A program made the translations under genes and the position numbers. Shown here piece after piece: positions 10,804-30,648 of a DNA stretch of 32,000 nt. The stretch spans positions 1,110,001-1,142,000 of the forward strand of contig NC_007969.1 of NCBI RefSeq assembly GCF_000013905.1, read 5' to 3'. This DNA comes from Psychrobacter cryohalolentis K5. Its GTDB lineage: Bacteria; Pseudomonadota; Gammaproteobacteria; Pseudomonadales; Moraxellaceae. Under the pieces are notes generated by a model. It ran no database searches, was not told the DNA's origin, and saw nothing but the letters and a program-made list of their open reading frames with translations. The stretch's first letter is position 1, and each line of letters starts with the position of its first letter.

Positions 10804-11230
10804 TTATGGCTAAGCGACAGTAGTTGTCGTACACCCTATTTTATTCCCTTTCTTTCCACTGGTTTTTATACTATAGTTATTGAGTTAGGAAGAAATAACG
10901 AAACATCGTGACATAGAGTTAAGCCTCGAAGCGCAACGCTTCACCTTATAGCTCTGCTATTTTCGTTAACATTAAAAAGCTCTTAATTGATATTAACTAC
11001 TACCATTCTAATTATCAATAAACATAAGCAATCAAACGTAGCCCGCATAAAAATGCTGGTAATAAACCTCTTTTTGTCAAAAAAATAAGCTTAAAAAAAT
11101 TAACTCACTCATCTTGCCCCTACAACGTTGCTCAAAAAGCTGCGAGTAGACACGGCTGACTTAAAGCTTTGACTACCATAATTAAAAAACGCTACTAGCA
11201 AACTACCTTTAAAATAATAAGGACAATCCT

Positions 11231-12858: not shown

Positions 12859-13716
12859 ATGACTGCTTCCCTAAATAACAGTCCTTCAAAAGCTAATCTC
12901 TCTATAGCACAAGCCTGTGCAATCACCTTCCAAGGTAATGCCAGTAATGACCTACAACAAGATGCTTTTTTCTTTTTGGACAATTGGTATCAAGAAGACT
13001 TAGGGGTGATGGCAGTGACACCAGTGGCATCTCCTTTTTGCTTAGCAGTGTCTGATGGTGTGGCAAGCTCTAATCATTCACAGCACTGCTCAAAGGCAGT
13101 GGTGAAAGCAATTAGCCGGTTATGGAGTGAGCGGAAGAGCATCCGTTCAGACAGTATTCATCAGCTGATTAATCAAGCCAAACATTCATCTAAGCGTCAT
13201 GATGCAGCGGCAACCCTCGCGATGGTAGTGGGAGAAGTAAATAGTGAAGGCTTAGTAAAGGCAACGATAACCCATGTAGGGGATAGTCGTGTTTACTGGC
13301 TACCCGAAGGCACGTCACAATGGCAATGTCTGACTCGTGATCATAACTTGCTAAATGAACTCATTGATCAGCAGGCACAGGAGCAAGGTCGGCAAGCGGA
13401 GTTTTCTGACTATAACCGAGAAGGAATGGCGGGGAGTCTGTATAGCATTACTGAGTGCTTTGCCTTAACCACTGATGACAGCTATATAAGCAGTGAAGCA
13501 CCAGAAGCCAACTCTTGCACTATTGATGTTAATAGTGGCGACTGTCTCTTGGTTTGTACGGATGGTATTCATGACTTAGTGCCAAGTCATAACTGGCAAA
13601 CTGTCAGTGCACAGACAGATTTGCAGGAGTGGCTCATCACTCTTAAAAATCAGGTCTATGACTCCGATGGCAATGCTTATGATAATGGCACCGCAATTGT
13701 GGTTCGTTTTGATTGA
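12859..13716 (+). CDS. PP2C-family (PPM) Ser/Thr protein phosphatase
   Basis: 285 aa. PPM motifs in the right order: AVSDGVASS, THVGDSRVYW, LLVCTDGIHDLV, DNGTAIVVRF. Confidence 0.85.
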   Translation: MTASLNNSPSKANLSIAQACAITFQGNASNDLQQDAFFFLDNWYQEDLGVMAVTPVASPFCLAVSDGVASSNHSQHCSKAVVKAISRLWSERKSIRSDSIHQLINQAKHSSKRHDAAATLAMVVGEVNSEGLVKATITHVGDSRVYWLPEGTSQWQCLTRDHNLLNELIDQQAQEQGRQAEFSDYNREGMAGSLYSITECFALTTDDSYISSEAPEANSCTIDVNSGDCLLVCTDGIHDLVPSHNWQTVSAQTDLQEWLITLKNQVYDSDGNAYDNGTAIVVRFD

Positions 13717-14858
13717 ACATTTATCTTAATAATAAAGTGATGAGCTCATCACGTAATAGAGTAAATACTATGTCCACGCATCCAATCGCCAGCTATACAA
13801 AGTCGACACGTCTATTTGCTTTATATCAATGTCTGCCTCGTAGTGAAGCGGATGCTGTGTCACTGACAGAGTTGATGATTGGTTATGGTGATAATCCAGA
13901 TAATTTCGCTAATGAGCGTAAAAACTTAGAGAACGATCTGATTGGCTTAAATCAAATCTTTAACGGTATTTTTTATAGTGATGCATTAGTTCGAGTACCG
14001 GAATGGGGGCAAAATATCAGCGGACAAACAGCACGCTTTTATATTGAACCGAGCTTTAGTATCGACGTTCTTAACGAGCAAACAGTGTTCTTTTGGGAGA
14101 TGCTTGATAAATATACCGCAAACTATTTACCAGTGTCTTTTAAACAAGGAATCACAGATAAGCTCACCCAATTAGGCCGGCACAATAAGGATGGTTTCCA
14201 TCAAAGTAAGCTTGGGCAATGGCAAGATTATCTCATCACTTTACCTAGTATTGTGCAAGCACCGACGCTTAATAATGAGGTGGTTGCAAGTATTCATCAA
14301 GCTTTGCTACAAAATCATCAACTACGGATAATCTATCAAAAGAAATGGGCAGGAGAGTCAGCTGTAAGAGTGGTATATCCCAAAGGGCTTATCTTCATCG
14401 ACAATATGGTTTATCTCACAGGCTTTGATCCTACTGATGATCATATCGATGATGAAGCACTGTTAAAAGCGCATCGTAATTTTGCAATCAATCGTATTAC
14501 CGAGGCAGTAGTCATAGATAAGCCGATACCTGACTGGGTAGGGCGAGATACTTTTTCATTAGAGCATTTGCATAAACTGGGTAGGTTAGAGCCGACTGAT
14601 AGTGCACAGATCAAACTGGTTTTAGAGGTACAAAGATATGCCTGTCAGCATTTATACGAGCGTCCGTTATCGATAGATCAAAAAATTATTGCTATCGATG
14701 ACACTTGGAATCAAGTCAGTGCCACTGTTGCCAATACGCTTCGTCTGCAAGATTGGCTGGTAAGTATGTCACAGTTGTCTGTTGTCATTGAGCCACCAGT
14801 GCTAAAAACCGTAATTCTAGAGCGCTTACATAGTGCGTTAGAGTTATATGGAGATTAA
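13713..14858 (+). CDS. HTH-WYL-WCX transcriptional regulator (BrxR/CapW/PafBC-like architecture)
   Basis: N-terminal wHTH-like RLFALYQCLPRSEADAVSLTELM. WYL domain LRIIYQKKWAGESAVRVVYPKGLIFIDNMVYLTGFD...HRNFAINRITEA. C-terminal extension ...LRLQDWLVSMSQLSVVIEPPVLKTVILERL, typical of the WCX domain. The track start is TTG 13713 (4-nt overlap with the PP2C stop). ATG 13740 or ATG 13770 are alternative starts. Confidence 0.8.
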   Translation: MNIYLNNKVMSSSRNRVNTMSTHPIASYTKSTRLFALYQCLPRSEADAVSLTELMIGYGDNPDNFANERKNLENDLIGLNQIFNGIFYSDALVRVPEWGQNISGQTARFYIEPSFSIDVLNEQTVFFWEMLDKYTANYLPVSFKQGITDKLTQLGRHNKDGFHQSKLGQWQDYLITLPSIVQAPTLNNEVVASIHQALLQNHQLRIIYQKKWAGESAVRVVYPKGLIFIDNMVYLTGFDPTDDHIDDEALLKAHRNFAINRITEAVVIDKPIPDWVGRDTFSLEHLHKLGRLEPTDSAQIKLVLEVQRYACQHLYERPLSIDQKIIAIDDTWNQVSATVANTLRLQDWLVSMSQLSVVIEPPVLKTVILERLHSALELYGD

Positions 14859-14932
14859 GATTCAGTTATTAATAATGTGATCTTAAATTATTTAACGAAG
14901 AGTTGATTCTCAACTTTAACAGGAAGTTTAAA

Positions 14933-15934
14933 ATGATAACAAACAATACTACTACTGCAAAACCATGGATGTCAGAGCTGTGGACATGGGCCGATGAGTA
15001 TGGGATTTCTGAAAAGGATTTACCACGAAACGAAGCGCATCTATTGACGATAACAGAATTGGAGATCTGCTCTGACCAGATTACTGAGCTGCCTGAAAGT
15101 ATTGGTTACTTACACAACCTAACCCATTTAGCCCTAAACTGCAAAGCGCTTGAACGTTTGCCAGAGTCTATAGGTCAATTAAGTCAGTTAGAGCGATTGA
15201 CGATTACTAGTGATGAGGTTAAGCAACTTCCTGAGAGCTTTGCTAGGCTAATCAGTTTGAGTTCGCTAAATATTCCTACTCACTTAAGCAATCAGCTACC
15301 CACGACTCTTATGGATAAGTATCATAATGAAAATGAAACGTTATATATAGAGCGTATGGCTTTCACTTCGTTATATAGCCCCTTGGAAAAGAATTATGGC
15401 TTATCCTTTTTCGGGTTTGTTCTTATTAGTGATGATTGGAATGAAAAAGCACTAATTGATTTAAAGTTCAAAGCAGCATTAGAGTTCTTACTCGTTTTGC
15501 AAACCACTGAACAAACTATTGATGATTTTGATGTGGTGGATGGCGTGATCATTTGCAAGCCTGATGAAGTACAAAAAATAATAAATATGTTTGAAACTAC
15601 TTTCGACTATTCTGTGATGGCTATAGACTTTGGAGATGTTAGAGAAGCAATAAATTTTGCGAAACCTGCTAAATTTATACAAGCTAGTGCATTAGAAGTG
15701 TCTGAATCAGACAAAGTATTTAGTCAGATTATTGATCAAATTCCTAAAGAGATAACCGTAAAATCTGTGATGTTTCAAGTGGAAAGTAACCGTTATTTTA
15801 CAGTGGATGAGTTCAAAGTTATGTCAGATACTATTGATAATATGGGTGCAGAGGATGAACATATTTTCTATAGTGCAAAAGTTGTCGATAAGCCTGAGCA
15901 CTGTTGGATGGGTATGATATATATGGTTGGGTAA
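14933..15934 (+). CDS. short LRR protein: same Trp-rich cap + about 4 LRR units + distinct C-terminal domain with FtsZ C-terminal-subdomain-like features
   Basis: ATG 14933 is preceded by AGGAAG; the track ORF starts at TTG 14903. Cap: KPWMSELWTWADEYGISEKDLPRNEAHL. LRRs such as ITELPESIGYLHNLTHLAL, LERLPESIGQLSQLERLTI, VKQLPESFARLISLSSLNI. C-terminal ~105 aa: MAIDFGDVREAI...TVDEFKVMSDTI...CWMGMIYMVG. Confidence 0.8.
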   Translation: MITNNTTTAKPWMSELWTWADEYGISEKDLPRNEAHLLTITELEICSDQITELPESIGYLHNLTHLALNCKALERLPESIGQLSQLERLTITSDEVKQLPESFARLISLSSLNIPTHLSNQLPTTLMDKYHNENETLYIERMAFTSLYSPLEKNYGLSFFGFVLISDDWNEKALIDLKFKAALEFLLVLQTTEQTIDDFDVVDGVIICKPDEVQKIINMFETTFDYSVMAIDFGDVREAINFAKPAKFIQASALEVSESDKVFSQIIDQIPKEITVKSVMFQVESNRYFTVDEFKVMSDTIDNMGAEDEHIFYSAKVVDKPEHCWMGMIYMVG

Positions 15935-16025: not shown

Positions 16026-16763
16026 CTACTCTTGATGTTTCCAGCTTTCTTGGTTTAATGGCATTTGGTTGAGTAAATCTCGTCTAGATCGCCAATCGGG
16101 CATGTGAGTGTCCAGCAGGGCTTTAAACTTGTCATTGTGCTGCCGCTCTTTAAAATGTAGCAGTTCATGCAAGATAATATATTCCAAGCAGGGCAGAGGC
16201 TTTTTAGCCAAATCTAAGTTAAGCTGTATATTGCCTCCTTCTATATTACAGCTGCCCCATTTGGTTTTCATTTTTTGGATCTGCCAACTGTTTATAGCGA
16301 CGCCAGTTTGCTTAGACCATTTATTAATAAGATCAGGTGCTCTTACTTTTAAGCGGTTACGATAGTATTCATTCAATAGCTTCAGCTTCACTTCATCTGA
16401 GGCATCAATATTTACGGTTAGTATAAGCTTACCGCTTTTTAGTTTGACCGTCTGAGATTTGAGTGTATCGCTCTCAATCACTTCAAGTCGGTAGCGTCTG
16501 CCCCAAAGATAATGCGTCTCTCCATTTACCATCTCACGCGCTGATTGGCGCTCTTGCTTGGCAAACGCCGCCTGTTGCCGTCGAATCCAAGGTATACGGT
16601 GGATGACAGCCATCCGAATGGCCGTCTCGGTCATAGCATCAGGCGCAGATACTCTGACCTGTCCATCAGGTGGCATCACGCTAATATGTAGGTTTTTAAT
16701 ATCTTTGCGAGTTAAATGTATATCTAACTCACCAATCTTAATAAGCGCTGACTTAACAATCAC
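16026..16763 (-). CDS. DUF45 / YgjP-like (M48-type) zinc metallopeptidase
   Basis: 245 aa with the HExxH motif in YIILHELLHFKERQHNDKF near the C-terminus, as in DUF45/YgjP proteins. Its start overlaps the hsdR stop by 4 nt. Confidence 0.8.
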   Translation of the reverse strand: MIVKSALIKIGELDIHLTRKDIKNLHISVMPPDGQVRVSAPDAMTETAIRMAVIHRIPWIRRQQAAFAKQERQSAREMVNGETHYLWGRRYRLEVIESDTLKSQTVKLKSGKLILTVNIDASDEVKLKLLNEYYRNRLKVRAPDLINKWSKQTGVAINSWQIQKMKTKWGSCNIEGGNIQLNLDLAKKPLPCLEYIILHELLHFKERQHNDKFKALLDTHMPDWRSRRDLLNQMPLNQESWKHQE

Positions 16764-19700
16764 TGATATTCCTGTTGTGCCTTAATCAAATTAATTAACG
16801 CCTCTATATCGACATCGACCTGATACTGAGAAACAGTTTGATGTACGGCACGCTCAATTTTTCGCTCTTTAATCAGATGACCTTGCCAATCAGCCTGTTT
16901 ATTGAGCCTAATAGCAGCATCTACTTTGTCTGCTAAGTCCTCGTTTTGATCCAAGTTATCATATAACGCGCGTTTCGCAGGAGTGTTGATAGTCTTAGGG
17001 TATGCATGACCACCTGCGCTACCCGTAGGATTGATTACTTTAGAGGCTAGCTGGCGTATCTTTTGCAAGTATTCAGCGTAGGCAATGGCTTTTTTTCGGC
17101 GTAGCTCAATGAGCTCATCGAGTAGGGCAGACATATGCTCGTAGTATTTTGGGTTGACTGGATTTTCATCCACAATCGTTTTACGCACGTTATTCTCGAT
17201 AGTCTCAGCTACGTTCTCAGGGTTGCTCGCTATATCTTCAGGTATGGCTTTGATTAAAGCTTCAGACCCTTGATTGACAATTAACTCAATGAGTCCTAAA
17301 TCTTCAAAGTCGATAACAGTCTCACTAGGTGTAGCATGAATATAAGTGTCTAACATCCTACGCATGGTCGGCTCATAGCTTTTCATATCGATATGGTCGC
17401 CACTCATAAGCTTGATGTTATTACGCACGGACTCAAAGTGTTTTACATCGTCTTTAATGCGTTTGATTTCCTGATCGCTATATCCCGCTTCCGCCATTTC
17501 ATTGGCGATATTGCCATAAGCACGTATCAGCTTAGAGACGCTTTTATATAAGGTGAGGCGCAGTTGTTCCTTTTCTACTTTATCAGCTTCAGTTACATCT
17601 TCACTAGGGCAAAAGTAAGCGGCATAGTCCTGTGTATTTCTAGGGTACTTAACAGGCTCACAAAGTCCTCTGACCATCTCTAGGGCATCATCTAGGTTTT
17701 GTCTCGCCGCACTTAAGCGGTTCTTTAACAGCCCATCAATATCTTCATCTTCATACTCTGAAAATGCACCTTGCGTATAATCAGAAATGGTACTGTTTAA
17801 AGACTGAAATAGATCCTGATAGTCAATGATATATCCATAGTCTTTTTCTGCACCATCGAGTCTATTAACACGGCAAATGGCCTGAAAGAGGTTGTGATCA
17901 GCCATCTTTTTATCAATGTATAGATAAGTAGCAGAAGGCGCATCAAATCCTGTCAGCAGTTTATCTACAACTATCAACAGTCGCATTTGACCTGGTTCTT
18001 CAATAAAGCGTTTTTTAACAGCTTTCTCAAAGTCCTCTGCTTTAGAGCCTGCTTCTTGTTCGCTGATATCATAATAATCGGCAATCATCCTGCGATAAAT
18101 TTGATATTTGAAAAGCTTCTCTGTCATTCCTTCGCCAGTTTCCTCACCTTTAATGCTATCTGCAGTCGGTAGGTAACTGGTCACAATTGCTACTTTGCCT
18201 TTCAAGAAAGAGTTTTCAAAGGCTTCGTAAGATTTACAGGCTTGATAAATACTGTTGCACACAAGCATGGCATTGCCATGACCATCCATAAGCCTTGGCT
18301 TTTTCTGCATATCGAGCAAGATGTCATTGACGATGCACTCTATGCGCGACTGGCTAGACAGAACCCGCTGCATGGTTCCCCATTTTTGCTTAAGCTGGCT
18401 CTTGGCAATATTGGTTAAGCCGCGGGTATGAGCGTCGAACCACTCATCAACTTTTTTAGATGAGGTAAGCTGTTGATCAATGTCACGTGCTTCATACAGA
18501 AGATCTAACACCACCCCATCAGCGACTGCTTCATCAAACTTATAGGTGTGAATAAAAGGTCCAAACACTTCGATAGATTTCTTTTTATCTTTTTTAAGCA
18601 GTGGCGTGCCGGTAAAACCGACAAACATCGCTTCTGGTAACAGCGCCTTCATAGCGCTGTGCAGCTTGCCAGATTGAGTGCGGTGACACTCATCAACGAA
18701 GACAAATAAATCGCCCTTAGGGCTAAAGTCTGAGGGTAGGCTGGCTTGAATGTCCTTTATAAAATCCTCTGTGTCCATTGCATCATCGTCACCACCGTGA
18801 CGGCCAAATTTGTGCACCAAAGAACACAGTAACCAAGGGTTAGGCTGATTTAGCTGGGTAATAAGATCAGCACCGCTCTTGGTGCGATATATTGATTCAT
18901 CAACACCAAAAAATACTTTTTCAATTTGTTCATCAAGTTCGGTACGGTCAGTAATAATAAGTACGCGACTATTGGTAACATTCTCCCGTATCCATTTAGC
19001 CATCCAAACCATAGTCAAGCTTTTACCTGAACCTTGCGTATGCCAAATAATCCCATCTCTGCGTTGTGCAATATGCTTCTTAGTGGATTGTATCCCAAAG
19101 AATTGATTATGTCGGCAAGTCTTTTTTACACCTGAATCAAATACAATAAAGTTATTAATGATGTCTAAGAACCTTTGCTTATTGCACATATGATATAGAT
19201 GGAAGTCTAAGGGCTGATCGGTGAAGTTAGCCTTTGCTAAGGTAAGATGCGTCGGTACGCTAATATCAGACTGGGGTGTATGATTGGGGTTGGCTTCTTT
19301 CCATTCCAGATAGTATTTCTCTGGCGTTTCAATGGTGCCATAGCGCAAGCCTTGGGTGTCATTACCTGCCATAACCAGTTGAATGGTGCTAAAGAAGCTA
19401 CGAATGAATTCTTTTTTCTGATTGTCTAGGTTCTGGTGAATGCCTTCGGTGACGTTAATGGTAGAGCGTTTAAGCTCAATAACGCCCAATGCAATGCCGT
19501 TGACATAAAGGACGATATCAGGACGTTTTTTATTTTCGCCATTGATAGAGACTTCTTCAGCAATAGCAAAGTCATTGGCCTCAATATTGTGCCAATCAAT
19601 CAGCCAGATGGTTTCTTTATGATCGCCAGTACCTTCTTTTTCTTTGACACCATAACGTAGTAGTCGGTACACCTCTTTATTGGCATCGTATAGTTTAACG

Positions 19701-19924
19701 CCACTGCCGAGAGCGGCGGCTTTTTCTAAAGCGTTAATGGCTCGGTTTTGCAAAGTGCGACTGACATTACGTGAGCTTAACCATGCTGCCAAAATTTCAG
19801 ACTCAATATTCTTGTTATTAGGTCTATCTTTAAAGTCACCTAGATAGCGATAACCTAGCGTGTCGGTAAAGAAGCGTACGACACGGTTTTGAGTGAGTCT
19901 TTCTATATCGCTGACGTTACTCAT
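16760..19924 (-). CDS. hsdR: type I restriction enzyme R subunit
   Basis: 1054 aa. N-terminal PD-(D/E)xK nuclease RPDIVLYVNGIALGVIELKRS. SF2 motor motifs WHTQGSGKSLTM (motif I), VFVDECHRTQ (DEAH-type motif II), FTGTPL (motif III). Same operon as hsdM and hsdS. Confidence 0.95.
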   Translation of the reverse strand: MSNVSDIERLTQNRVVRFFTDTLGYRYLGDFKDRPNNKNIESEILAAWLSSRNVSRTLQNRAINALEKAAALGSGVKLYDANKEVYRLLRYGVKEKEGTGDHKETIWLIDWHNIEANDFAIAEEVSINGENKKRPDIVLYVNGIALGVIELKRSTINVTEGIHQNLDNQKKEFIRSFFSTIQLVMAGNDTQGLRYGTIETPEKYYLEWKEANPNHTPQSDISVPTHLTLAKANFTDQPLDFHLYHMCNKQRFLDIINNFIVFDSGVKKTCRHNQFFGIQSTKKHIAQRRDGIIWHTQGSGKSLTMVWMAKWIRENVTNSRVLIITDRTELDEQIEKVFFGVDESIYRTKSGADLITQLNQPNPWLLCSLVHKFGRHGGDDDAMDTEDFIKDIQASLPSDFSPKGDLFVFVDECHRTQSGKLHSAMKALLPEAMFVGFTGTPLLKKDKKKSIEVFGPFIHTYKFDEAVADGVVLDLLYEARDIDQQLTSSKKVDEWFDAHTRGLTNIAKSQLKQKWGTMQRVLSSQSRIECIVNDILLDMQKKPRLMDGHGNAMLVCNSIYQACKSYEAFENSFLKGKVAIVTSYLPTADSIKGEETGEGMTEKLFKYQIYRRMIADYYDISEQEAGSKAEDFEKAVKKRFIEEPGQMRLLIVVDKLLTGFDAPSATYLYIDKKMADHNLFQAICRVNRLDGAEKDYGYIIDYQDLFQSLNSTISDYTQGAFSEYEDEDIDGLLKNRLSAARQNLDDALEMVRGLCEPVKYPRNTQDYAAYFCPSEDVTEADKVEKEQLRLTLYKSVSKLIRAYGNIANEMAEAGYSDQEIKRIKDDVKHFESVRNNIKLMSGDHIDMKSYEPTMRRMLDTYIHATPSETVIDFEDLGLIELIVNQGSEALIKAIPEDIASNPENVAETIENNVRKTIVDENPVNPKYYEHMSALLDELIELRRKKAIAYAEYLQKIRQLASKVINPTGSAGGHAYPKTINTPAKRALYDNLDQNEDLADKVDAAIRLNKQADWQGHLIKERKIERAVHQTVSQYQVDVDIEALINLIKAQQEYQ

Positions 19925-19927
19925 GAT

Positions 19928-22099
19928 TCAGCGTCCTTCTATCTTGAGATTCAAAGCACCTTCAAAAAGTCTTAGCATCTCGTTTTCATGTTCAATGATT
20001 TGATCATAACCCCATTGATATTGATTGTCTTTTGGATTGAAGACTTTAATCATTTTGTATAGCTTAAGTGAGTCGATATGACTTTTAAACGACTCATCAT
20101 AGTGTTCTTTTTTAGCTAAGGGCTGGTGATTACTAACGCGAGAGTTAAGACTTCTGTTGATGAGGCACAGATTACCAAAACGATGAATGTCGATTCTATC
20201 GTCAATTTTTTCATCTTTATGTATGGGGGTCTGAGGTAAGAAGTGTTCAATAGAGCCTTGTGTAGAGGGTCTAAACTTCTTTTTATCCCCTGATTCAACA
20301 TTACCACTCAACCAAATCAAGTAATCTAAGTAGTTGAATACAAAGACATTGACATGAGGGTATCTTAGTTGTTGTGACAGTTTCTCAAATTCAATCGTTC
20401 GAGGTGATAACGACTGACTGGACAATGTCATCTCACTATTATCATTTATATGGCGACTAAACTCTTGAAAGTAATCATTGACGATATTATTAGGCTTGGT
20501 TCGATCAGATTGAGCGATATACCTTCTAAGCATATATGCTTTAGCCAGCCCATCAAGATAGCTCAGAAATGCTTTGCCATCGATACCTTGTTCACGCTTA
20601 TCAAACGTCAAATAGAGATACTGCAAGCAGGCATTTAACCAGTATTTAGAATTAAGAGTAGGTGCAGACACATGAAAGGCGCTTTGCAGAGTAACCAAAC
20701 TGGCATTTAAGTCTGGTCCAGTTGAGTCTTTTGGCATATTTTGTTTATAAGAAGGACCTGACGCCTCATTGTTTAGCTGCTCAAGGGTCCAATAGCCTTT
20801 CTTAGACTCTGTATTACGCTTGATAATATATTGATCAAATAAAAACTTTGATTTCAATAAGGTGTAAAGGAACTGCTCTATTTTAGCTACCTTATTGGTC
20901 ACCTTAGAACCAATCAAATGATTATCAAATTCAATCAATAACTGCTTATCATCAAGCGATACGATGTCATTTTGAGGGTTGTCAGTCAGATTTTGAGTCA
21001 CGTGTACTCTTAAAACCTGCAATAAAAAATTGGGAAAATCTATCAAACTATAATAGGTTTCATCATCCTCATCGCCCTTATTCTTTTTGGCTGGATTAGT
21101 GGGTATATCAACAGTATCATTAAATAAAATGTCATTTAAGCTAATGATATTTTGAGCCTCTACTTTTTCTGAGGCTGTTTTAGAGTTATCTTTACTCTTT
21201 TTGGCAGCTTGCTCGTTGCAATCTTGAATATAAAAATCAAGCAAATCAGAAAAATATTTTGGCTCAAAATGTGCCCAGTCTGATGAGAAAATCTTTTTAC
21301 GTAGATCAGTTGTAAAGCCATATTGCACGTACTTATTCATACGACTGCAAGTATTCCAAATCAAATCTAACAGGCTTTTGCAATGTTGTATTTGCTTTGT
21401 GTCGGCAGAAGTGTCACTGCTAATTGCTGATAGCAGTCTGGCCTTAATGATTTCGTGTTTTTCTAATTGCTCACCTCGATTGTTCATTACTTCAAAGTAG
21501 TGATTAAGGTCTGTCTCCTGAGGAACAGGAACCCTAGCTATCTCTACCTTATTGAATAAAAAGGTACAAAATTCATTGATGGATGTGACTTCATTATTTC
21601 CATTAAAAAGATACGTCATCGTTTTGGTTAAGATATCATAACCATCGATAATAGACTGATTCATAGAGGCATCTTGGGCAAAGCGTGCTGACTCACGGTT
21701 ATAAAGCAAAGATAAGGTGTAATCTGAATGTGGGCGACTTTCAAAATATAAGTTTGTCTGGTTGAATTGTTCTAAATAAGAGTGACAATACTGATGATGA
21801 TTGTGATGTAAATATATTGCCAGTAGGGTTAGGGTAGTTAAGCGTTGCTGACCATCTATCACTTCAAACAAAGCCTGACTGGTATTGGATTTTTCAAAGA
21901 CAACTAAAGTACCTAAATAGTAGGTTAAGTTTGGGTCACGATTATAAGCGTCAATAATATCTTTGATTAATGTTTCAATTTCAACAGTGCCCCACGCATA
22001 GTTACGCTGATACATCGGAATGACATACTGATCGCCATTGGTCAGCAGTTTTTTGATAGGTAAAGAACTTACTTTCACACTTGAGTTATTCATTGTCAT
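19928..22099 (-). CDS. DUF262 + DUF1524 protein (GmrSD-family type IV restriction enzyme-like)
   Basis: 723 aa. N-terminal DUF262/ParB-like motifs IPMYQRNYAW and VIDGQQRLTTLTLL. C-terminal His-Me/HNH-like DUF1524 motifs SIEHFLPQ...IHRFGNLCLINRSLNSRVSN. 3-nt gap to hsdR and 1-nt gap to the upstream DUF262 gene. Confidence 0.85.
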   Translation of the reverse strand: MTMNNSSVKVSSLPIKKLLTNGDQYVIPMYQRNYAWGTVEIETLIKDIIDAYNRDPNLTYYLGTLVVFEKSNTSQALFEVIDGQQRLTTLTLLAIYLHHNHHQYCHSYLEQFNQTNLYFESRPHSDYTLSLLYNRESARFAQDASMNQSIIDGYDILTKTMTYLFNGNNEVTSINEFCTFLFNKVEIARVPVPQETDLNHYFEVMNNRGEQLEKHEIIKARLLSAISSDTSADTKQIQHCKSLLDLIWNTCSRMNKYVQYGFTTDLRKKIFSSDWAHFEPKYFSDLLDFYIQDCNEQAAKKSKDNSKTASEKVEAQNIISLNDILFNDTVDIPTNPAKKNKGDEDDETYYSLIDFPNFLLQVLRVHVTQNLTDNPQNDIVSLDDKQLLIEFDNHLIGSKVTNKVAKIEQFLYTLLKSKFLFDQYIIKRNTESKKGYWTLEQLNNEASGPSYKQNMPKDSTGPDLNASLVTLQSAFHVSAPTLNSKYWLNACLQYLYLTFDKREQGIDGKAFLSYLDGLAKAYMLRRYIAQSDRTKPNNIVNDYFQEFSRHINDNSEMTLSSQSLSPRTIEFEKLSQQLRYPHVNVFVFNYLDYLIWLSGNVESGDKKKFRPSTQGSIEHFLPQTPIHKDEKIDDRIDIHRFGNLCLINRSLNSRVSNHQPLAKKEHYDESFKSHIDSLKLYKMIKVFNPKDNQYQWGYDQIIEHENEMLRLFEGALNLKIEGR

Positions 22100-22100
22100 A

Positions 22101-23576
22101 TTATTCTCCTGACGTATCTATGTAGTTGAGACAATTAAATAACGTGTAAATATCGCTATCACTTTTATTGGTGTCATTGTTAGGTTTATGGTTATTTGCT
22201 AATTCACTGATTTTAAGAGACGGTATAGAAGTAATGACCACGTTCTTTGGTAATATCGCCTCGTTGATACGCATGAACATACCTGTATTCTTTGATGCGT
22301 GATTATCGATTGTACTCAGGCCGACACCATAGTTTGTTAATCGAACGTTATAAGCCCACGCAAATAGTAGCTCCACCGCCTGTGACAGCTCTTCTGTGCC
22401 AAATTTATCAATATAATAAATTAACGCATTATCAAAGACGTTACGGGTCAGCTTGTCGCCTTTACGCCTTCGTTGATAGTCATTATAAGAATCTAAGGTA
22501 TTTATTATTTTGGAGGCGCGGTTGTTTAAGGCGTGATCAAACAGGGTAACGATTTGCTTAGAATCAGACGTTTGATCATTATTAATGGCCTTGTACTTGG
22601 TTATCAGAGCATCGTAATGTGCCACCATTTCAAAAAACCGTCTTCCGTTAATGATGGTTTGGTCAATTGAAAAGGGATAAGCAGTGGGCTTGCCTGCGAT
22701 TTTGCAATGAACGCTGTTGTTATAGTCATCAATATAGTGGTGAGTGATGGCTAAGCGTCTGGTATAGGGCGGAAGTGTCTTGGCCTCTAGAGTAATGCCT
22801 TTGAATTCTGCGACATCATCTTTGGTAAATGTCTGCGCTGACTGACCTCGTGACCAGCGTCTAATACGATATAAATGATTTGAGAATAATTTGGCCAGTC
22901 TGTCATCATCGAGATTCTCCCAATAGTCGACAGTCTTCTTCCTTAATGCATTATCGTCAGTTTTAAACTCACGTAAATGAAATGCTTTTAGCAAGTCATG
23001 TGGGAATAAGTCTTTACCTCGTGAATTTTGAGAGTCAAAAAATTGAAACGCTTCAGACTCTTTATCTAATACAAATATCACCACGTCGCATCGCGTTAAT
23101 AAAAACTCAATATGCTTAAGGGTAAAGTCGCCTCTATTAATGATATTAGAGATAACCTTATAGTTTTCATATAAGTTATAGAGCGAGAAGTCATCTTTAA
23201 ATTGAGGTTTGTTAATAAAAGCTTGAACTTTTTGAGGCAGATTCCCCAATACCCTATCAATGCTTTTGGCGTCATCTGACGCTTTATTATTGTTACAATA
23301 GGTATTGATGGCTAGTAAAGCCAACATTAGGGTAAGGGTGCGCTGTTGACCATCGACAATATCTAAGACGCCTTTTTCGGTATTATTGTGCAATACCACC
23401 GTACCTAAACGGTAGGCCGGTTTATCGCTGTGCATTCTAATGTCATCAAATAAGCTAACGACATTTTCAGCCGTCCATTTATAGGGGCGTTGGTATTCAG
23501 GTATCGTCAGTGACGGTACGCTAAGGAAGTCTTTCACAGATATAATTTTTTGATGTAATTCTTGTGAGTTGCTCAT
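22101..23576 (-). CDS. DUF262-only protein (GmrS-like NTPase/ParB-like domain)
   Basis: 491 aa. IPEYQRPYKWT and IVDGQQRTLTLMLALL motifs. No C-terminal HNH-type motif seen. Confidence 0.8.
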   Translation of the reverse strand: MSNSQELHQKIISVKDFLSVPSLTIPEYQRPYKWTAENVVSLFDDIRMHSDKPAYRLGTVVLHNNTEKGVLDIVDGQQRTLTLMLALLAINTYCNNNKASDDAKSIDRVLGNLPQKVQAFINKPQFKDDFSLYNLYENYKVISNIINRGDFTLKHIEFLLTRCDVVIFVLDKESEAFQFFDSQNSRGKDLFPHDLLKAFHLREFKTDDNALRKKTVDYWENLDDDRLAKLFSNHLYRIRRWSRGQSAQTFTKDDVAEFKGITLEAKTLPPYTRRLAITHHYIDDYNNSVHCKIAGKPTAYPFSIDQTIINGRRFFEMVAHYDALITKYKAINNDQTSDSKQIVTLFDHALNNRASKIINTLDSYNDYQRRRKGDKLTRNVFDNALIYYIDKFGTEELSQAVELLFAWAYNVRLTNYGVGLSTIDNHASKNTGMFMRINEAILPKNVVITSIPSLKISELANNHKPNNDTNKSDSDIYTLFNCLNYIDTSGE

Positions 23577-23641
23577 AACATACCGTTAATTGATTGATGA
23601 TATTAATGTTGAATACTCTTAACGCTTAAAATATTAGCCTA

Positions 23642-24901
23642 TTAAACCAACCGCACCTTGCCAGTCAACAGCTGCTGCATCATGCCTTGCTTGATGTCTT
23701 TGGTTTTCTCTAGTCTTCCTTCCAATGCTTGAATCTCCGCATCCATATCGGACAGGATAGTGGCGATGGCGGTTTGTTCTTCAACTAAAGGTAAGGTAAC
23801 TGATGCTTGTTTTATTTCTTTTGTTCCTATATTCGCTTGTACGCCTAGTGATGCTACTCCTTTACAATAAGTTCTCCACAACGGTAAGCTGCTAAGATAT
23901 CTTAGATAGTTAGACTGTGCTAAATCTTTATTTAATCTTAATAAGCCAACACGCTGATTTAATAAGGCTGTATGAGTCAATTCTGCAATAGTCATTTGTC
24001 CAATTAGGTTTTTATCAGGTGTTACATCTGTCATTGCTATAAGTAAGTCACCATCTTTAACCCAAAAGTCTTTAAGATGCTCAAACTGGCTCGCATCCCA
24101 CTTTTTAACTTCATTTGGATTGTATTGGAACGAGCCGTTTAATCCGATCTGTGACATGGTAATAATTGGAGTGCCATTTTTTATATAATCTTTAGCAGAA
24201 AATGAATAGCCATTTCTGAACTCTTTTAGTAGTTTTCCAAACTCAATTACCTCCCAATCCTCAGGAATCTGCCCTAATTCAGTCTGTTTAAGTTCCTTAG
24301 CACTGCCATCATCACGAGTGGCAAACTCAGGCAGGCGAGTTTTACCAGTGAGGATCTGTTGCATGGTGCCGGTTTTAATGGCTTCTTTTTTTGCAATCAG
24401 TTTTTCCAGTGACTGGATTAAATTATCGATATCAGATAGGGCAGTGGCGATAGCGGTTTGTTCAGGTTTCTTTGGTACTGATATTTTAACATTACTAATA
24501 GTACTAGCATTTAAGCTTGGTACGCCTGAAGCTTCGTTATAATTCATCCAGTCAATCAGACAAAACTTATAGAACATGAATTTTTCATCGTAGCCATTAT
24601 GCACTTGTGAATAGAAAAGAGTATCCACTGTCCAAAAGGGTACGTTGATATATCTTGGTTTATTGATAGAGCCTTTTCTACCAATCAATACAGAAGGTTT
24701 GTCATATAGAAAGTCGCTTGCCCATCCCATTTGCCCGCCAGTACCAAATATTGGATATTGACCACGAGTACTTTCAACTTGTTTCTGATCCTTACCATGT
24801 CTGATTGTTAAAGCTTCACCAATATCTTTAACTTCCCAATCCTCAGGGATAACCCCAATTTCAGTTTGCTTATAACCCTCAGGCATTTTAACCTCATTCA
24901 T
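23642..24901 (-). CDS. hsdS: type I R-M specificity subunit
   Basis: 419 aa with the classic duplicated layout. Two variable TRDs are each preceded by IPEDWEV (GVIPEDWEVKDIGE / GQIPEDWEVIEFGK) and followed by a conserved helix (TAIATALSDIDNLIQSLEKLIAKKEAIKTGTMQQILTGKTRLP / TAIATILSDMDAEIQALEGRLEKTKDIKQGMMQQLLTGKVRLV). The start overlaps the hsdM stop (TAATG). Confidence 0.9.
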   Translation of the reverse strand: MNEVKMPEGYKQTEIGVIPEDWEVKDIGEALTIRHGKDQKQVESTRGQYPIFGTGGQMGWASDFLYDKPSVLIGRKGSINKPRYINVPFWTVDTLFYSQVHNGYDEKFMFYKFCLIDWMNYNEASGVPSLNASTISNVKISVPKKPEQTAIATALSDIDNLIQSLEKLIAKKEAIKTGTMQQILTGKTRLPEFATRDDGSAKELKQTELGQIPEDWEVIEFGKLLKEFRNGYSFSAKDYIKNGTPIITMSQIGLNGSFQYNPNEVKKWDASQFEHLKDFWVKDGDLLIAMTDVTPDKNLIGQMTIAELTHTALLNQRVGLLRLNKDLAQSNYLRYLSSLPLWRTYCKGVASLGVQANIGTKEIKQASVTLPLVEEQTAIATILSDMDAEIQALEGRLEKTKDIKQGMMQQLLTGKVRLV

Positions 24902-27330
24902 TACGCCACTCCCATCGCTTGCAGATGCGCTTGCACTTTTTGACCTAACATCTCCACCTCATCTACGATTTGCGATAAAGGCTCAGCATAACGCTCATCC
25001 AGTTCTTTAATACGGTTAGCAAGCTGGGCAGTGATACGCTCAATCTCATCTTCGATACGCCCTTGTAGAGTGGCGTGCCATTTATCCTCGATCAATAGCG
25101 TTTTGATAGCCGCTTCATCCAAAGTCGGGTAGTGTTTAAATACCGCCAGATCCAATGTTTCTTGCGCTTCTTTTAATACCTTTTTCGCATTGGCTTCTAA
25201 CTCGAAGTAAGCGAGCAGTTGCTTGAGTGCCTCGATTTCATCGCTATCGGTGGCGAGCTTTAGACGCGCGTTGACGCTAGACTTATTAAAGCTGCCTTTT
25301 TCATTAGCGGCATCGGCTAGTAAGCCTTCCTCATCTCCATGCTCCTCAACGTAGTCAGCTATGGTACTTGAGATGGTGTCTAGCTCAGCCTGTAGTGCAT
25401 CGATATGGGCTTGCTCATCGCTATAGTAGCGGTCGATGATAAGCGCAGGCGGGATAAGCTCCGCTTTATATTTCACCTTATTAATAATCAGGTCAGGCTC
25501 TTCCTTAAGCTTTTCACCTTTAGCCACGACCAACTTGCGTAGCTGGGCTCCGACTTGCCAGCCATCTTGACTAATGGCATAGACATCGTCCTGCAAGCTT
25601 TCACTCCAGTAGTCCATCAAGATTTGATAAATATCATACTTATCTAGCAGCGGCGCTATTTCGTAGCGTTGTAGCAGGTCTTCACTGATTTTGTGGATAA
25701 GGGCTTTAGGCCTATCGCCTTTGGTGATTTCACTTAACTGAGTAGCTTGCCACCAGTCATTGAATGGCGTTAGGCTTTGCTCAGCAAAGGTAATGAACTC
25801 AGGATGAGCCAATACCGCCGCCTTGATCTCAGTCGATGCCACGAGACACTCACAGTAACCGTTTCCACTATGCTTAAGCTCGGAGAATAGCGTTTTGCGT
25901 AAGTTAGGTAATACCTGCCAATAAGACTCTAGAGAGTCGATATCGGCAACAGGAATACCGCCTTTTAAATGCGCGGTTAGATCGTGCTGATCTTCATCAA
26001 TACTGGCATCGATATAGCGTGGAATGTTTAAGTTATAGTCGTTATCGATGATCTCATCCAACTCAACCATTCGGCTATAGCCTGTCAGATTCAGTTGAGA
26101 GTTAAAGACATCGACGATTTTGTGAATATCTTGGCTACGTAGACGGTTTTTATTACCGTCTTTCATATAGCCCCGGCTAGCATCGACCATAAACAGACCC
26201 GCGTCACCTTTGGCTCGGCTCTGTGCGGTGTTTTTATCAATCACGATGACACAAGCAGGGATGCCCGTACCGTAGAACAGGTTAGCTGGCAAGCCTATGA
26301 TACCTTTGATATAGCCTTGCTTGATTAAGTTCTGGCGAATATGCGCTTCGGCATTGCCTCGGAACAGCACACCATGTGGCAAAATGACTGCGCCAACACC
26401 CGTGCTTTTTAAGCTTTTGATAATATGTAATAGAAAAGCATAATCACCGTTCTTCTCGGGCGGAATACCCCAAGTAAAGCGGTCAAACTCATCCGACTCT
26501 GGGTTTAAACCACTGGTCCAGTTCTTATTACTAAACGGCGGGTTTGCTACGATAAAATCGAAAGTCTTGAGCTGATTGCCTTCTACAAAGTGCGGAGAGG
26601 ATAGGGTGTTGCCTTTATAGATGTCAGCACCTGTTGCTCCATGCAATATCATATTCATCTTTGCCAATGCGGTAGTCGCGAAGTCCATCTCTTGACCATA
26701 GATAGTCAAGCCACGTGGCGCTTCATCGCTAACTTTAAGCAGTAGAGAGCCTGAACCGCAGGCTGGGTCGTATACAGTCGCGTCTAGTGGTGTATTGTCG
26801 TCAACACCAATAATCTTCGCCAAAATACGTGATACTTCCGATGGCGTATAAAACTGCCCCTTAGATTTACCAGATTCAGTAGCGAAGTGACGCATGAGGT
26901 ATTCGTAAGCATCGCCTAGTAGGTCATCACCATCAGCACGGTTGCCTGATAAATCCAATCCTTCAAAAATACCAATCAGCTTCGATAAGCGATCGACATG
27001 CTCTTTGCCTGTACCGAGTTTTTCTTCATCGTTAAAGTCAGCAACATCAATGACACCGCGCAAACCGTTGGCTTCAGCCAGCTTAGCGATAATCTTGTCG
27101 ACTTTTTCGCCAATCTCTTTATCACCCTTCAGCGCGACCATATCATCGAAGCTACCACCTTCCGGCACTACGATATCGCCAAAAGCGTCGTCTTTGTATT
27201 TATCAGACACATACTTCATAAATAACATGGTCAATACATAGTCCTTGTATTGACTCGCATCCATGCCGCCGCGTAACTCGTTACAGCTTGCCCAAAGGGT
27301 AGAATAAATCTCGGTTTTCTTAAGTGCCAT
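24901..27330 (-). CDS. hsdM: type I R-M N6-adenine DNA methyltransferase subunit, long form (809 aa)
   Basis: N-terminal HsdM_N-like LWASCNELRGGMDASQYKDYVLTMLFMKYVSD. SAM motif I VYDPACGSGSLLL and catalytic motif IV FIVANPPFS. An additional ~330-aa C-terminal region is rich in predicted helices and coiled coil. Confidence 0.95.
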   Translation of the reverse strand: MALKKTEIYSTLWASCNELRGGMDASQYKDYVLTMLFMKYVSDKYKDDAFGDIVVPEGGSFDDMVALKGDKEIGEKVDKIIAKLAEANGLRGVIDVADFNDEEKLGTGKEHVDRLSKLIGIFEGLDLSGNRADGDDLLGDAYEYLMRHFATESGKSKGQFYTPSEVSRILAKIIGVDDNTPLDATVYDPACGSGSLLLKVSDEAPRGLTIYGQEMDFATTALAKMNMILHGATGADIYKGNTLSSPHFVEGNQLKTFDFIVANPPFSNKNWTSGLNPESDEFDRFTWGIPPEKNGDYAFLLHIIKSLKSTGVGAVILPHGVLFRGNAEAHIRQNLIKQGYIKGIIGLPANLFYGTGIPACVIVIDKNTAQSRAKGDAGLFMVDASRGYMKDGNKNRLRSQDIHKIVDVFNSQLNLTGYSRMVELDEIIDNDYNLNIPRYIDASIDEDQHDLTAHLKGGIPVADIDSLESYWQVLPNLRKTLFSELKHSGNGYCECLVASTEIKAAVLAHPEFITFAEQSLTPFNDWWQATQLSEITKGDRPKALIHKISEDLLQRYEIAPLLDKYDIYQILMDYWSESLQDDVYAISQDGWQVGAQLRKLVVAKGEKLKEEPDLIINKVKYKAELIPPALIIDRYYSDEQAHIDALQAELDTISSTIADYVEEHGDEEGLLADAANEKGSFNKSSVNARLKLATDSDEIEALKQLLAYFELEANAKKVLKEAQETLDLAVFKHYPTLDEAAIKTLLIEDKWHATLQGRIEDEIERITAQLANRIKELDERYAEPLSQIVDEVEMLGQKVQAHLQAMGVA

Positions 27331-27831
27331 AGTTATAAGTCTTATAATCAGAGAATGTTTTATTAAGTGAAAAAATTATCGAAGAATGGTATCACATTAC
27401 AGCTCGTATTCTCGTCATATAGACTGACTTAAAGGGCTAATAGATATACGCTCTAGTCTAGCGTCAGTGTTGATAGGATAGAAGATAATTAAAATAGTAA
27501 TAGAGATTCACACGTCATCTAATGTCGTAAGTAGTCAGCGGTAATTTAAACTATAGTTATTCTCTGATCAAAAATATAAATGCATGTAGCTATTAAGTCT
27601 CAAATTTATCTATTATTTTCTAGATATTAGTCGTCAATCATTTTCTAGTCATTTGTTTATGTTACTATTCCATTTTTATAAGTTACAGCTTGTAATGACG
27701 GGTCTTGCTTGTCGTTATAGATAGTTTTTGACCTAGATATTTATTACTAAATTGTGCTGACTTTAATTTGGTTATGTTTAGTTTAAATAGTATAACTTTC
27801 AATCTTTTATTTGATGGGATAGGTGATATTG

Positions 27832-29916: not shown

Positions 29917-30648
29917 ATGATTGGTAATAGGTACGCTAAAAAAACTCGTTCGAAGGATGAGGGTGAGAAGCCTTTTTGGATCTCATTTGCTGACTTAATG
30001 ACAGCACTAATGACGCTCTTTTTAGTAGTGATGGCAGTATCTTTAATGGTCGTCACTAAAAAAATCAACGAAGCAACGCAAGCTGAAAAAGAACGTAGTT
30101 CAGAGATCTTGGATATTTGTACTGGTATTAAAGACGACCCTACTTTAAAGAATCAGCTCATTACCGTAGATTGTAAAGAGAACCGTATTAACTTTGGTGA
30201 AGCAGGTCGCTTTGGGCATAACGATTACCGGTTGAATGCAGAGGGTATAAAGGCTTTAAGTGCTTTAGTTCCTGTTGTCTTGGAAGCGGCTAATAGTGAA
30301 AACGGCAAAAAATGGTTTAAACAGATTGTGATTGAAGGCTTTACAGATACCGATGGATCATATTTATATAACCTGAATTTAAGCTTGCGTCGTTCGGAGT
30401 GGGTGATGTGTAGCTTATTGGATCCCACATTTAATCAAGAGCTCACTTTAACTGACGCGCAAAAAAACCAAATCAAACAGCTGTTTCTAGCTGGAGGTGT
30501 ATCGTTTAATTCAGCAAAAGACAGTAAAGAAGCTTCGCGCCGTGTAGAACTAAGAATGCAGTTTTATGGCTTAAAAGAAAAAGACAGTGCTGAGGCGCAG
30601 CCTATTTTTGTTTCTGCCCCTATTGAAACCTGTCAGCTGGCAAGGTAA
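29917..30648 (+). CDS. zorB: ZorB (MotB/OmpA-like peptidoglycan-binding stator subunit)
   Basis: 243 aa with a GGAG SD. MotB-type N-terminus PFWISFADLMTALMTLFLVVMAV, with the conserved Asp ahead of the TM. C-terminal OmpA-like motif IVIEGFTDTDGSYLYNLNLSLRRSEWV...RRVELRM. Confidence 0.85.
   Translation: MIGNRYAKKTRSKDEGEKPFWISFADLMTALMTLFLVVMAVSLMVVTKKINEATQAEKERSSEILDICTGIKDDPTLKNQLITVDCKENRINFGEAGRFGHNDYRLNAEGIKALSALVPVVLEAANSENGKKWFKQIVIEGFTDTDGSYLYNLNLSLRRSEWVMCSLLDPTFNQELTLTDAQKNQIKQLFLAGGVSFNSAKDSKEASRRVELRMQFYGLKEKDSAEAQPIFVSAPIETCQLAR

Follow-up and report, generated by a model that had tools for sequence, protein, structure and literature searches.

A highly derived FtsZ paralogue without GTP-binding loops, encoded behind leucine-rich repeats in a defence island of Psychrobacter cryohalolentis

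Along an FtsZ filament, each subunit inserts its T7 loop into the GTP site of the next subunit, and the C-terminal peptide of FtsZ binds FtsA, ZipA and regulators. SulA, MciZ, the CbtA/YeeV toxin, the phage protein Kil and gp0.4 of phage T7 are protein inhibitors of FtsZ assembly, and to our knowledge none of these natural inhibitors is itself a homologue of FtsZ. Here, we describe a gene of Psychrobacter cryohalolentis K5 that encodes leucine-rich repeats (LRRs) followed by a domain which we call mini-FtsZ. The gene lies in a stretch of 32,000 nucleotides of contig NC_007969.1 (positions 1,110,001 to 1,142,000; hereafter the window). The last ~206 residues of its product (residues ~128-333) are shown below to be a highly derived, shortened FtsZ paralogue without GTP-binding loops. 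What mini-FtsZ has in common with the natural inhibitors and with engineered FtsZ capping mutants is only its proposed action: it would bind a longitudinal face of FtsZ and prevent filament growth, and its expression would be subject to stress or defence control. Unlike the natural inhibitors, mini-FtsZ as a putative inhibitor would be degenerate FtsZ, a copy of its own target. The described FtsZ/tubulin relatives that we found all keep the GTP-binding core, whereas the mini-FtsZ family discards the nucleotide site. For instance, FtsZl1 and FtsZl2 are likewise very divergent, lineage-restricted offshoots of the superfamily that were detected with profiles only and that occur in multi-gene contexts unrelated to division (PMC2875224). 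However, both of these families have retained the GTP-binding core, including the motif GGGTG(S/T)G, and FtsZl1 has no recognisable T6-H7 region and C-terminal domain (PMC2875224). Mini-FtsZ is the converse of FtsZl1, with the T7 loop and the C-terminal subdomain present and the GTP loops gone.

The site contains a single long open reading frame (14903-15934, + strand, in the list of open reading frames), of which the ATG at 14933, preceded by the ribosome-binding site AGGAAG, is likely the true start. The LRR-mini-FtsZ gene then covers 14933-15934 on the + strand, including the stop codon at 15932-15934, and encodes 333 residues. The LRR region (15017-15313, +; residues ~29-127) comprises about four repeats and an N-terminal cap helix. 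Its tandem repeats of the LxxLxLxxN type pass the Pfam cutoffs for LRR_14 (E 1.1e-11, 44.6 bits, cutoff 40) and LRR_8 (E 4.7e-8, 33.1 bits, cutoff 27), in both cases over residues 40-117, and the region is predicted with a local distance difference test score (pLDDT) above 90 in the AlphaFold2 (AF2) model of the full-length protein. The N-lobe of mini-FtsZ (15359-15604, +; residues 143-224) is built from four strands and two helices, the second of which is H7-like. It is followed by a T7-loop-like segment with an H8-like helix (15605-15652, +; residues 225-240), which was assigned from alignments and family conservation, and by the homologue of the FtsZ C-terminal subdomain (15617-15931, +; residues 229-333), in which the elements are ordered H8-S7-H9-S8-H10-S9-S10. 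The latter stretch makes up the final 105 residues of the protein. Translated together with the stop codon (15617-15934), it reads MAIDFGDVREAI...CWMGMIYMVG*, which is the C-terminus of the reading frame 14903-15934 (in the longer rendering MAIDFGDVREAINFAKPAKFIQ...EHCWMGMIYMVG*).

An initial annotation, which was made from the DNA letters alone, had aligned these 105 residues by hand with the C-terminal subdomain of E. coli FtsZ and had left open that the likeness was a coincidence. Both the coordinates and the sequence that it gave for 15617-15931 are right, and the E. coli FtsZ residues that it used agree with ftsZ of MG1655, from which the sequence was taken for the present comparisons. 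The best BLASTP segment between the full-length window protein and full-length E. coli FtsZ pairs residues 227-301 with FtsZ 204-282 (20% identity, E 0.24), and this unguided search reproduced the register of the hand alignment. When the last 105 residues were aligned with FtsZ 206-316, the local alignment had a z score of 4.05, with 4 of 2000 shuffles reaching the score, and the global alignment had a z score of 5.5, which was reached by none of 2000 shuffles. Taken on its own, this match between two sequences is borderline and at best suggestive. In Pfam, the last 200 residues of the window protein gave no FtsZ_C match at E <= 1 and just a weak match to the formiminotransferase domain FTCD. 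Sub-threshold FtsZ_C matches in the same register were obtained for 2 of 16 close members of the family (best E 0.025). A profile built from the 16 close homologues found FtsZ as the only family in the PDB at E <= 10 (E 0.11), and hhalign assigned a probability of 57.6% to its comparison with an FtsZ alignment from 13 species.

When 1.84 billion representative proteins were searched exhaustively with the same 16-homologue profile, 69 clusters were returned, none of them FtsZ. A further profile search for homologous proteins brought up mostly close members again. The deep results rest on 46-56 diverse members of this family, and the conservation values given below rest on 39 non-redundant members. 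A 46-sequence profile of the domain, compared by hmmsearch with 177,635 PDB sequences, matched FtsZ of both bacteria and archaea, with about 42 distinct sequences in all. The best match was FtsZ of A. baumannii (E 7.8e-7); those of M. jannaschii (E 1.6e-4) and E. coli (E 6e-4) were matched as well, as were those of S. aureus, B. subtilis, P. aeruginosa and T. maritima. In every FtsZ match the profile positions ~85-198 corresponded to FtsZ ~180-300, and the top match outside FtsZ had an E value of 0.35. Moreover, A. baumannii FtsZ, which comes from the Moraxellaceae, scored highest against the family profile (31.7 bits), with 12 other FtsZ proteins at 26 bits or less. In hhalign, the domain alignment matched the 13-species FtsZ alignment with a probability of 96.0% (P 3.8e-9), and the C-terminal half alone matched FtsZ 200-318 with a probability of 97.3% (P 2.2e-11). 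Controls with reversed alignments and with 30 column-shuffled alignments had scores of 8-18 and P values of 0.1-0.96. Single sequences stay below the threshold of the Pfam FtsZ_C model, and alignment against alignment yields 96-97%.

An AF2 model of residues 128-333 on the deep alignment reached a pLDDT of 90.6 and a predicted template-modelling score of 0.86. In the full-length model, which was built with 25 close homologues, the C-terminal 190 residues had pLDDT values of 25-55, and the inclusion of distant members cured this low confidence. In the domain numbering of the model, the N-lobe contains strands at 16-21, 31-37, 58-63 and 77-80 and a helix at 44-53, with pLDDT values of ~94-98. 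An H7-like helix of 15 residues follows at 83-97 and leads into the T7-like loop, and the C-terminal half is made of helices at 106-113, 129-141 and 164-175 and strands at 119-126, 149-158, 184-190 and 197-205. When the model was compared with the PDB by Foldseek, all top 50 matches were FtsZ (E 5e-9 to 4e-7, probability 1.00). The alignments extended over ~220 columns, which is the whole domain, with template-modelling (TM) scores of 0.55-0.60 normalised by the query. Since the alignment spans the full 206-residue domain, the protein carries a compact mini-FtsZ and not an isolated C-terminal subdomain, and in the model the two-lobed FtsZ fold with a Rossmann-like N-domain, the core helix H7 and a C-domain is retained. 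This overturns the view of the initial annotation that an isolated polymer-interface domain had been fused to the LRRs, because the whole of the last ~206 residues forms the FtsZ-like fold. Among viral models, phage FtsZ/tubulin-like proteins came out on top, with weaker matches than those of cellular FtsZ in the PDB, and a phage tubulin, which had been suggested as an alternative target, thus receives no specific support. The viral models included an uncharacterised protein of 245 residues from Siphoviridae sp. ctMaD24 (BFVD A0A8S5LVA2), which aligned over 206 columns (E 9.7e-5, TM 0.44 normalised by the target) and which, judged from the models, may be a similarly shortened phage FtsZ-like protein.

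The globular part of mini-FtsZ is ~110 residues shorter than FtsZ, and the reduction lies in the N-lobe. The N-lobe has no significant sequence similarity to the GTPase domain of FtsZ (hhalign P 0.13), and neither GGGTG(S/T)G nor another glycine-rich motif (T1, T4) was present in any of 46 members. The N-terminal half of the family contains 4% glycine versus 10% across the whole FtsZ core. In the window protein, the strand FGFVLI is followed by the residues SDDWNE, where the FtsZ signature loop would be expected. Because the glycine-rich loops are missing, binding of GTP in the manner of tubulin is not to be expected of mini-FtsZ. The earlier statement that the protein has no room for a GTPase domain therefore holds for the GTP motifs, all of which are absent, but not for the preceding ~100 residues, which belong to the same FtsZ-like fold. 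A pairing of FGFVLISDDW with S4/T4 and of VVDGVIICKPDEV with S6/T6 was also considered and found to be unsupported, given the hhalign P value of 0.13; the low-confidence extension of the alignment pairs these segments differently.

Taken together, the family profile, the profile-profile comparison and the fold comparison confirm the resemblance of the C-terminus to the FtsZ C-terminal subdomain that had been noticed behind the LRRs, and we regard the FtsZ homology of mini-FtsZ as solid. Its ancestry and its fold place the window protein in the FtsZ/tubulin superfamily, yet it is not FtsZ, since the signature GTP loops are missing and the score against TIGR00065 is just 13.8 bits (E 0.028, same register), compared with a cutoff of 295.2. 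FTCD (PF02971) was tried as an identity as well. The weak matches to it in 8 of the 16 close members did not reach the gathering score (best E 0.012), and it was dropped because it appeared neither among the PDB matches of the profile at E <= 10 nor in the Foldseek top 50. Compared with FtsZ, the end of H7, the T7 loop and the C-terminal subdomain are homologous, the two-lobed fold is the same, and the window protein has both T7 aspartates. In contrast to FtsZ, mini-FtsZ lacks the glycine-rich loops, is either fused to LRRs or stands alone, is located in defence islands instead of the division and cell wall (dcw) cluster, and has an invariant cysteine that FtsZ lacks.

The two T7 aspartates are Asp232 (codon 15626-15628, +) and Asp235 (codon 15635-15637, +), which align to D209 and D212 of E. 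coli FtsZ, so that both acidic residues are kept, as had been stated from the hand alignment. Among the family members, the position of Asp235 is occupied by Asp in 77% and by Glu in 10%, and that of Asp232 by Asp in 62% and by Asn in 15%. Thus, of the motif DFGDVR, the two aspartates are conserved in the family, while F, G and R are variable. Of the polar positions in the C-terminal half, the T7 acids belong to the better-conserved ones, and Phe248, in the same half, is found in 87% of the members. In the N-lobe, Leu174 and Cys208 (codon 15554-15556, +) are invariant, Tyr148 and Leu186 are conserved in 92%, Lys178 in 87% and Asp203 in 85%.

The window protein has ~110 full-length homologues with 47-98% identity, of which the named ones are from Psychrobacter. 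In the family of 69 clusters, mini-FtsZ is a discrete domain of ~200 residues that occurs either as a stand-alone protein of 190-260 residues or behind LRR arrays of widely differing length (335-858 residues). The LRR fusion is therefore genuine in the window protein but optional in the family. Members with a meaningful organism name belong to Psychrobacter spp. or Moraxella osloensis, and one is labelled as an Enterobacterales metagenome-assembled genome (MAG). In 10 clusters of the family, a peptide SIQ(D/E)YLx(K/R)Q lies outside the globular domains. In the stand-alone proteins P0151, P0157 and P0184 it forms the extreme C-terminus. P0151, whose cluster includes WP_219300720.1 of Moraxella osloensis, has a linker of ~35 residues between the domain and the peptide, as in the layout of FtsZ, and its tail reads ...GNSIQDYLRKQRNKE, compared with ...PMSIQDYLKNQQRK in A. 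baumannii FtsZ. In type and position, this peptide corresponds to the one with which FtsZ binds FtsA and ZipA. A contig scan with A. baumannii FtsZ yielded 80 FtsZ tails, of which 79 are from Acinetobacter, one is from an unclassified Moraxellaceae MAG and none is from Psychrobacter or Moraxella, and all 80 end with PMSIQDYL[KQ][NK]QQRK. The plasmid collection had no FtsZ of Psychrobacter or Moraxella among the matches listed. The SIQDYLxKQ-type peptide and the top score of Moraxellaceae FtsZ point to an origin of mini-FtsZ by duplication of the resident FtsZ. In the LRR-fused members P0121, P0122, P0123, P0128, P0139, P0141 and P0147, SIQ(D/E)YLxKQ is found within the protein or at its N-terminus, and a leucine-containing stretch (xLxxxxN) comes after it in most of these carriers. 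Divergent FtsZ proteins that are ~33% identical to E. coli FtsZ were also seen on a Marinomonas algicola plasmid (L018, 211-1173) and on the Pseudoalteromonas plasmid p1 (L016); the Marinomonas homologue is annotated as hypothetical and adjoins a gene with a PcfJ domain.

In the window, the LRR-mini-FtsZ gene is preceded by two genes on the same strand. The nearer one (13713-14858, +), which ends 75 bp upstream, encodes a protein with WYL (Pfam E 1.7e-10) and WCX (E 5.1e-7) domains, a putative nucleic-acid-sensing transcription regulator. The other (12859-13716, +) encodes a Ser/Thr phosphatase of the PP2C type (Pfam PP2C_2, E 2.1e-11; NCBIfam Stp1_PP2C, E 1.8e-17, under the model cutoff), and its 3' end overlaps the WYL reading frame by 4 nt. 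Across 13 distinct family loci, a PP2C gene was found in 8 and a WYL/WCX gene in 8, and one or both were adjacent in 10. The triad PP2C-WYL-mini-FtsZ occurs with the LRRs fused in the window and in L005, where a DUF1810 gene follows and CRISPR genes lie alongside, and as a bare triad in L113-L115, which adjoins a type I restriction-modification (R-M) system and an integrase gene. In L002-L004, the order is PP2C, WYL, PDDEXK_4, LRR-mini-FtsZ and DUF1810, and L008 has the last three of these genes. L027/L028 contain PP2C, WYL and PDDEXK_4 genes, a gene for a 904-residue LRR protein and a separate, overlapping mini-FtsZ gene. In L025, the mini-FtsZ gene is convergent with the WYL gene. A SIR2 gene is present in three contexts. 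In L022, it is followed by a mini-FtsZ gene with the tail peptide and by PDDEXK_4, WYL and Metallophos phosphatase genes. L031 has the order ParA, PP2C, mini-FtsZ (with tail), an unassigned gene and SIR2. In L023 (1-6669), PP2C, SIR2 and the stand-alone mini-FtsZ protein P0163 are encoded directly after a phage tape-measure gene, at an accessory position of a prophage. L021 has a WYL gene and, further on, two genes for dynamin-like GTPases, a HEPN gene and the gene for P0170 (8001-8885), in which mini-FtsZ carries a C-terminal FtsK-gamma winged-helix domain (PF09397). In L116, the mini-FtsZ gene (P0140) is followed by genes for dynamin-like GTPases, and L029 has no partner gene, with a type III-B CRISPR module nearby. 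No recognisable effector besides mini-FtsZ was found in the cassettes of the window, L005, L025 and L113-L115.

Mini-FtsZ probably either disturbs the FtsZ of the cell or imitates it. At somewhat less than even chances, we tentatively favour that it is the effector of an inducible division block and acts by docking on FtsZ. The module would offer the T7 ('bottom') longitudinal face of FtsZ without the GTP-bearing 'top' face; it could thus dock on GTP-FtsZ monomers or filament ends and stop growth, and the peptide-bearing members might in addition compete for the membrane anchors of FtsZ. The cassette would then be an effector of the growth-arrest or abortive-infection type, in which the neighbouring WYL/WCX sensor and PP2C phosphatase might control the expression or release of mini-FtsZ, and the LRRs may serve as an extra surface for protein recognition or autoinhibition. 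Mini-FtsZ is favoured as the effector because the window, L005, L025 and L113-L115 cassettes offer no other candidate. The T7 acids, the best match to Moraxellaceae FtsZ, the C-terminal peptides and the cassette with PP2C and WYL lend indirect support to the capping or poisoning of FtsZ, an idea that had already been raised in the initial annotation. Moreover, the Moraxellaceae lack LexA and SulA, and the WYL activator DdaA induces AciT, which inhibits division, together with DNA-damage and defence genes (PMC13010146, PMC12392091). An inducible division block would fit the biology of the Moraxellaceae, in which LexA and SulA are absent and a WYL activator is in use; SulA, an SOS inhibitor, is absent from Acinetobacter (PMC13010146). 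The cassette resembles DdaA-AciT of Acinetobacter and DriD-DidA of Caulobacter in that a WYL/WCX regulator lies beside or controls a putative division-stopping gene (PMC13010146, PMC12392091). However, AciT is small, membrane-anchored and unrelated to FtsZ, and the WYL gene of the window is a cassette-linked paralogue.

Several observations weigh against docking on FtsZ as the function of mini-FtsZ. The highest conservation is in the N-lobe (Cys208 and Leu174, then Tyr148, Leu186, Lys178 and Asp203) and not on the T7 face, a pattern that would fit a ligand-binding or catalytic site, and Asp232 is retained in only 62% of the members. With TM scores of 0.55-0.60 and a root-mean-square deviation of 6-8 Å, the fold is substantially remodelled relative to FtsZ, and the window protein itself has no FtsZ linker and C-terminal peptide. 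Furthermore, classical effectors are present in several cassettes, namely SIR2 in L022, L023 and L031 and PDDEXK_4 in L002, L008, L022 and L027, and with such partners a role of mini-FtsZ as a sensor or adaptor is equally natural. Finally, work on capping mutants of E. coli FtsZ is said to imply that a protein with the T7 face alone would bind the filament end that is less sensitive to capping.

The main rival reading, for which these SIR2 and PDDEXK_4 genes speak, is that mini-FtsZ is a decoy or guard sensor, that is, a dead FtsZ mimic that baits phage proteins targeting FtsZ or its partners, assisted in binding by the LRRs, and that triggers a PDDEXK_4, SIR2 or WYL-controlled response. The nucleotide site is gone while an FtsZ-like surface and, in some members, the tail are retained, LRRs are typical recognition modules, and the genes are located in defence islands and at the end of a prophage, all of which is consistent with such a role. 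It nevertheless appears somewhat unlikely to us, given that the cassettes of the window, L005, L025 and L113-L115 have no recognisable effector besides mini-FtsZ, that no phage inhibitor of FtsZ is known for these hosts and that signalling between the cassette proteins has to be assumed. Plant nucleotide-binding LRR receptors (NLRs) with integrated decoys are LRR receptors that carry a mimic of the pathogen's target. By analogy, the LRRs would here be joined to a non-functional copy of an attacked host protein; unlike the NLRs, the window protein is bacterial and has no NB-ARC/STAND ATPase. That mini-FtsZ is an immune decoy for divisome-attacking phage proteins, and hence a bacterial counterpart of the plant integrated decoys, is an analogy that we consider unlikely to hold.

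The conservation of the N-lobe leads to another explanation, according to which a fold of FtsZ descent was re-purposed, the N-lobe now being a ligand-binding or catalytic site or the protein building its own scaffold by self-assembly, with the divisome left untouched. The only invariant residues, Cys208 and Leu174, are both in the N-lobe, where Tyr148, Lys178, Asp203 and Glu212 are conserved as well, and Cys208, Thr191 and Asp203 are in loops beside predicted strands, the usual ligand site of Rossmann-like folds. Moreover, nothing in the sequence of the N-lobe still resembles the GTPase domain, and some contexts pair mini-FtsZ with dynamin-like GTPases or an FtsK-gamma domain and with nothing that is specific to division. 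However, the T7 aspartates are retained, the Moraxellaceae-type FtsZ C-terminal peptide in 10 clusters is hard to explain if the binding of partners is irrelevant, and no enzyme family outranks FtsZ in Pfam, NCBIfam, the PDB or Foldseek. We consider this explanation about as probable as the decoy sensor. A chance resemblance, in which an unrelated alpha/beta domain, for example an FTCD-like one, shares a DFxDVR-like string and the pattern of secondary structure, could appeal to the single-sequence BLASTP E value of 0.24 and to the weak FTCD matches in 8 of 16 close members versus 2 of 16 for FtsZ_C, but it is effectively refuted by the deep profile, which finds ~42 FtsZ and no FTCD among PDB sequences, by the profile-profile P value of 2.2e-11 with clean shuffled and reversed controls, by the Foldseek top 50, which are FtsZ only, and by the FtsZ-type C-terminal peptides of family members.

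The window as a whole is a defence island. Two large LRR proteins are encoded in it, as are McrBC-like and Zorya-like pairs and a type I R-M operon that encloses GmrSD genes, and the LRR-mini-FtsZ gene lies between the WYL gene and the R-M operon, outside the dcw cluster. The two LRR proteins (881-3154, +, and 3443-5584, -) have 757 and 713 residues and long non-LRR ends without a Pfam match. A profile search of all reading frames in the window did not detect the mini-FtsZ domain in either of them, and they may be further members of a repertoire that combines LRRs with variable effectors. The R-M operon (16026-27330, -) encodes HsdM, HsdS, HsdR and a YgjP-like peptidase, and GmrSD-family genes (19928-22099 and 22101-23576) sit between hsdS and hsdR. 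In a second Psychrobacter genome (L002), R-M and GmrSD genes in this same arrangement likewise border the cassette. At the edge of the island, a gene for a 691-residue protein without a Pfam match (27823-29898, +) is followed by one for a MotB_plug/OmpA protein (29917-30648, +), which together look like a ZorA/ZorB (Zorya) pair.

The box of the WYL activator DdaA in the Moraxellaceae is CGWCA-N5-TGWCG (PMC12392091). The window contains two exact copies of it, at 10815-10829 and 27513-27527, and none occurred in 100 shuffles. The first lies 416 bp upstream of the reading frame that starts at 11231, which is the first of five co-directional genes with LRR-mini-FtsZ as the last. The second is located where hsdM (start 27330, -) and the ZorA-like gene (27823, +) diverge from each other, which fits the DdaA boxes reported at R-M and Zorya promoters (PMC12392091). 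In contrast to DdaA-AciT, the box is not conserved beside the cassette; none was present there in the homologous loci examined, and control of the cassette by DdaA is not claimed.

PADLOC-DB v2 had no match for the LRR-mini-FtsZ and PP2C proteins and, on the neighbouring gene, a generic WYL model only; no model of PADLOC, NCBIfam or PHROGs covers the mini-FtsZ domain or the cassette. Likewise, literature searches found no description of the family, and a 2023 survey of the FtsZ/tubulin superfamily makes no mention of forms that are truncated or specific to the Moraxellaceae. The mini-FtsZ family is thus previously undescribed and the PP2C-WYL-mini-FtsZ cassette uncatalogued. A mini-FtsZ that docks on FtsZ would amount to a natural 'capping subunit' derived from its own target, and bacteria or prophages would have a new way to stop division during stress or infection; the Moraxellaceae, including the Acinetobacter pathogens, do without SulA. 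If it is a decoy, bacterial immunity would guard the cytoskeleton. In either case, mini-FtsZ would provide a small and readily expressed probe of the longitudinal interface of FtsZ.

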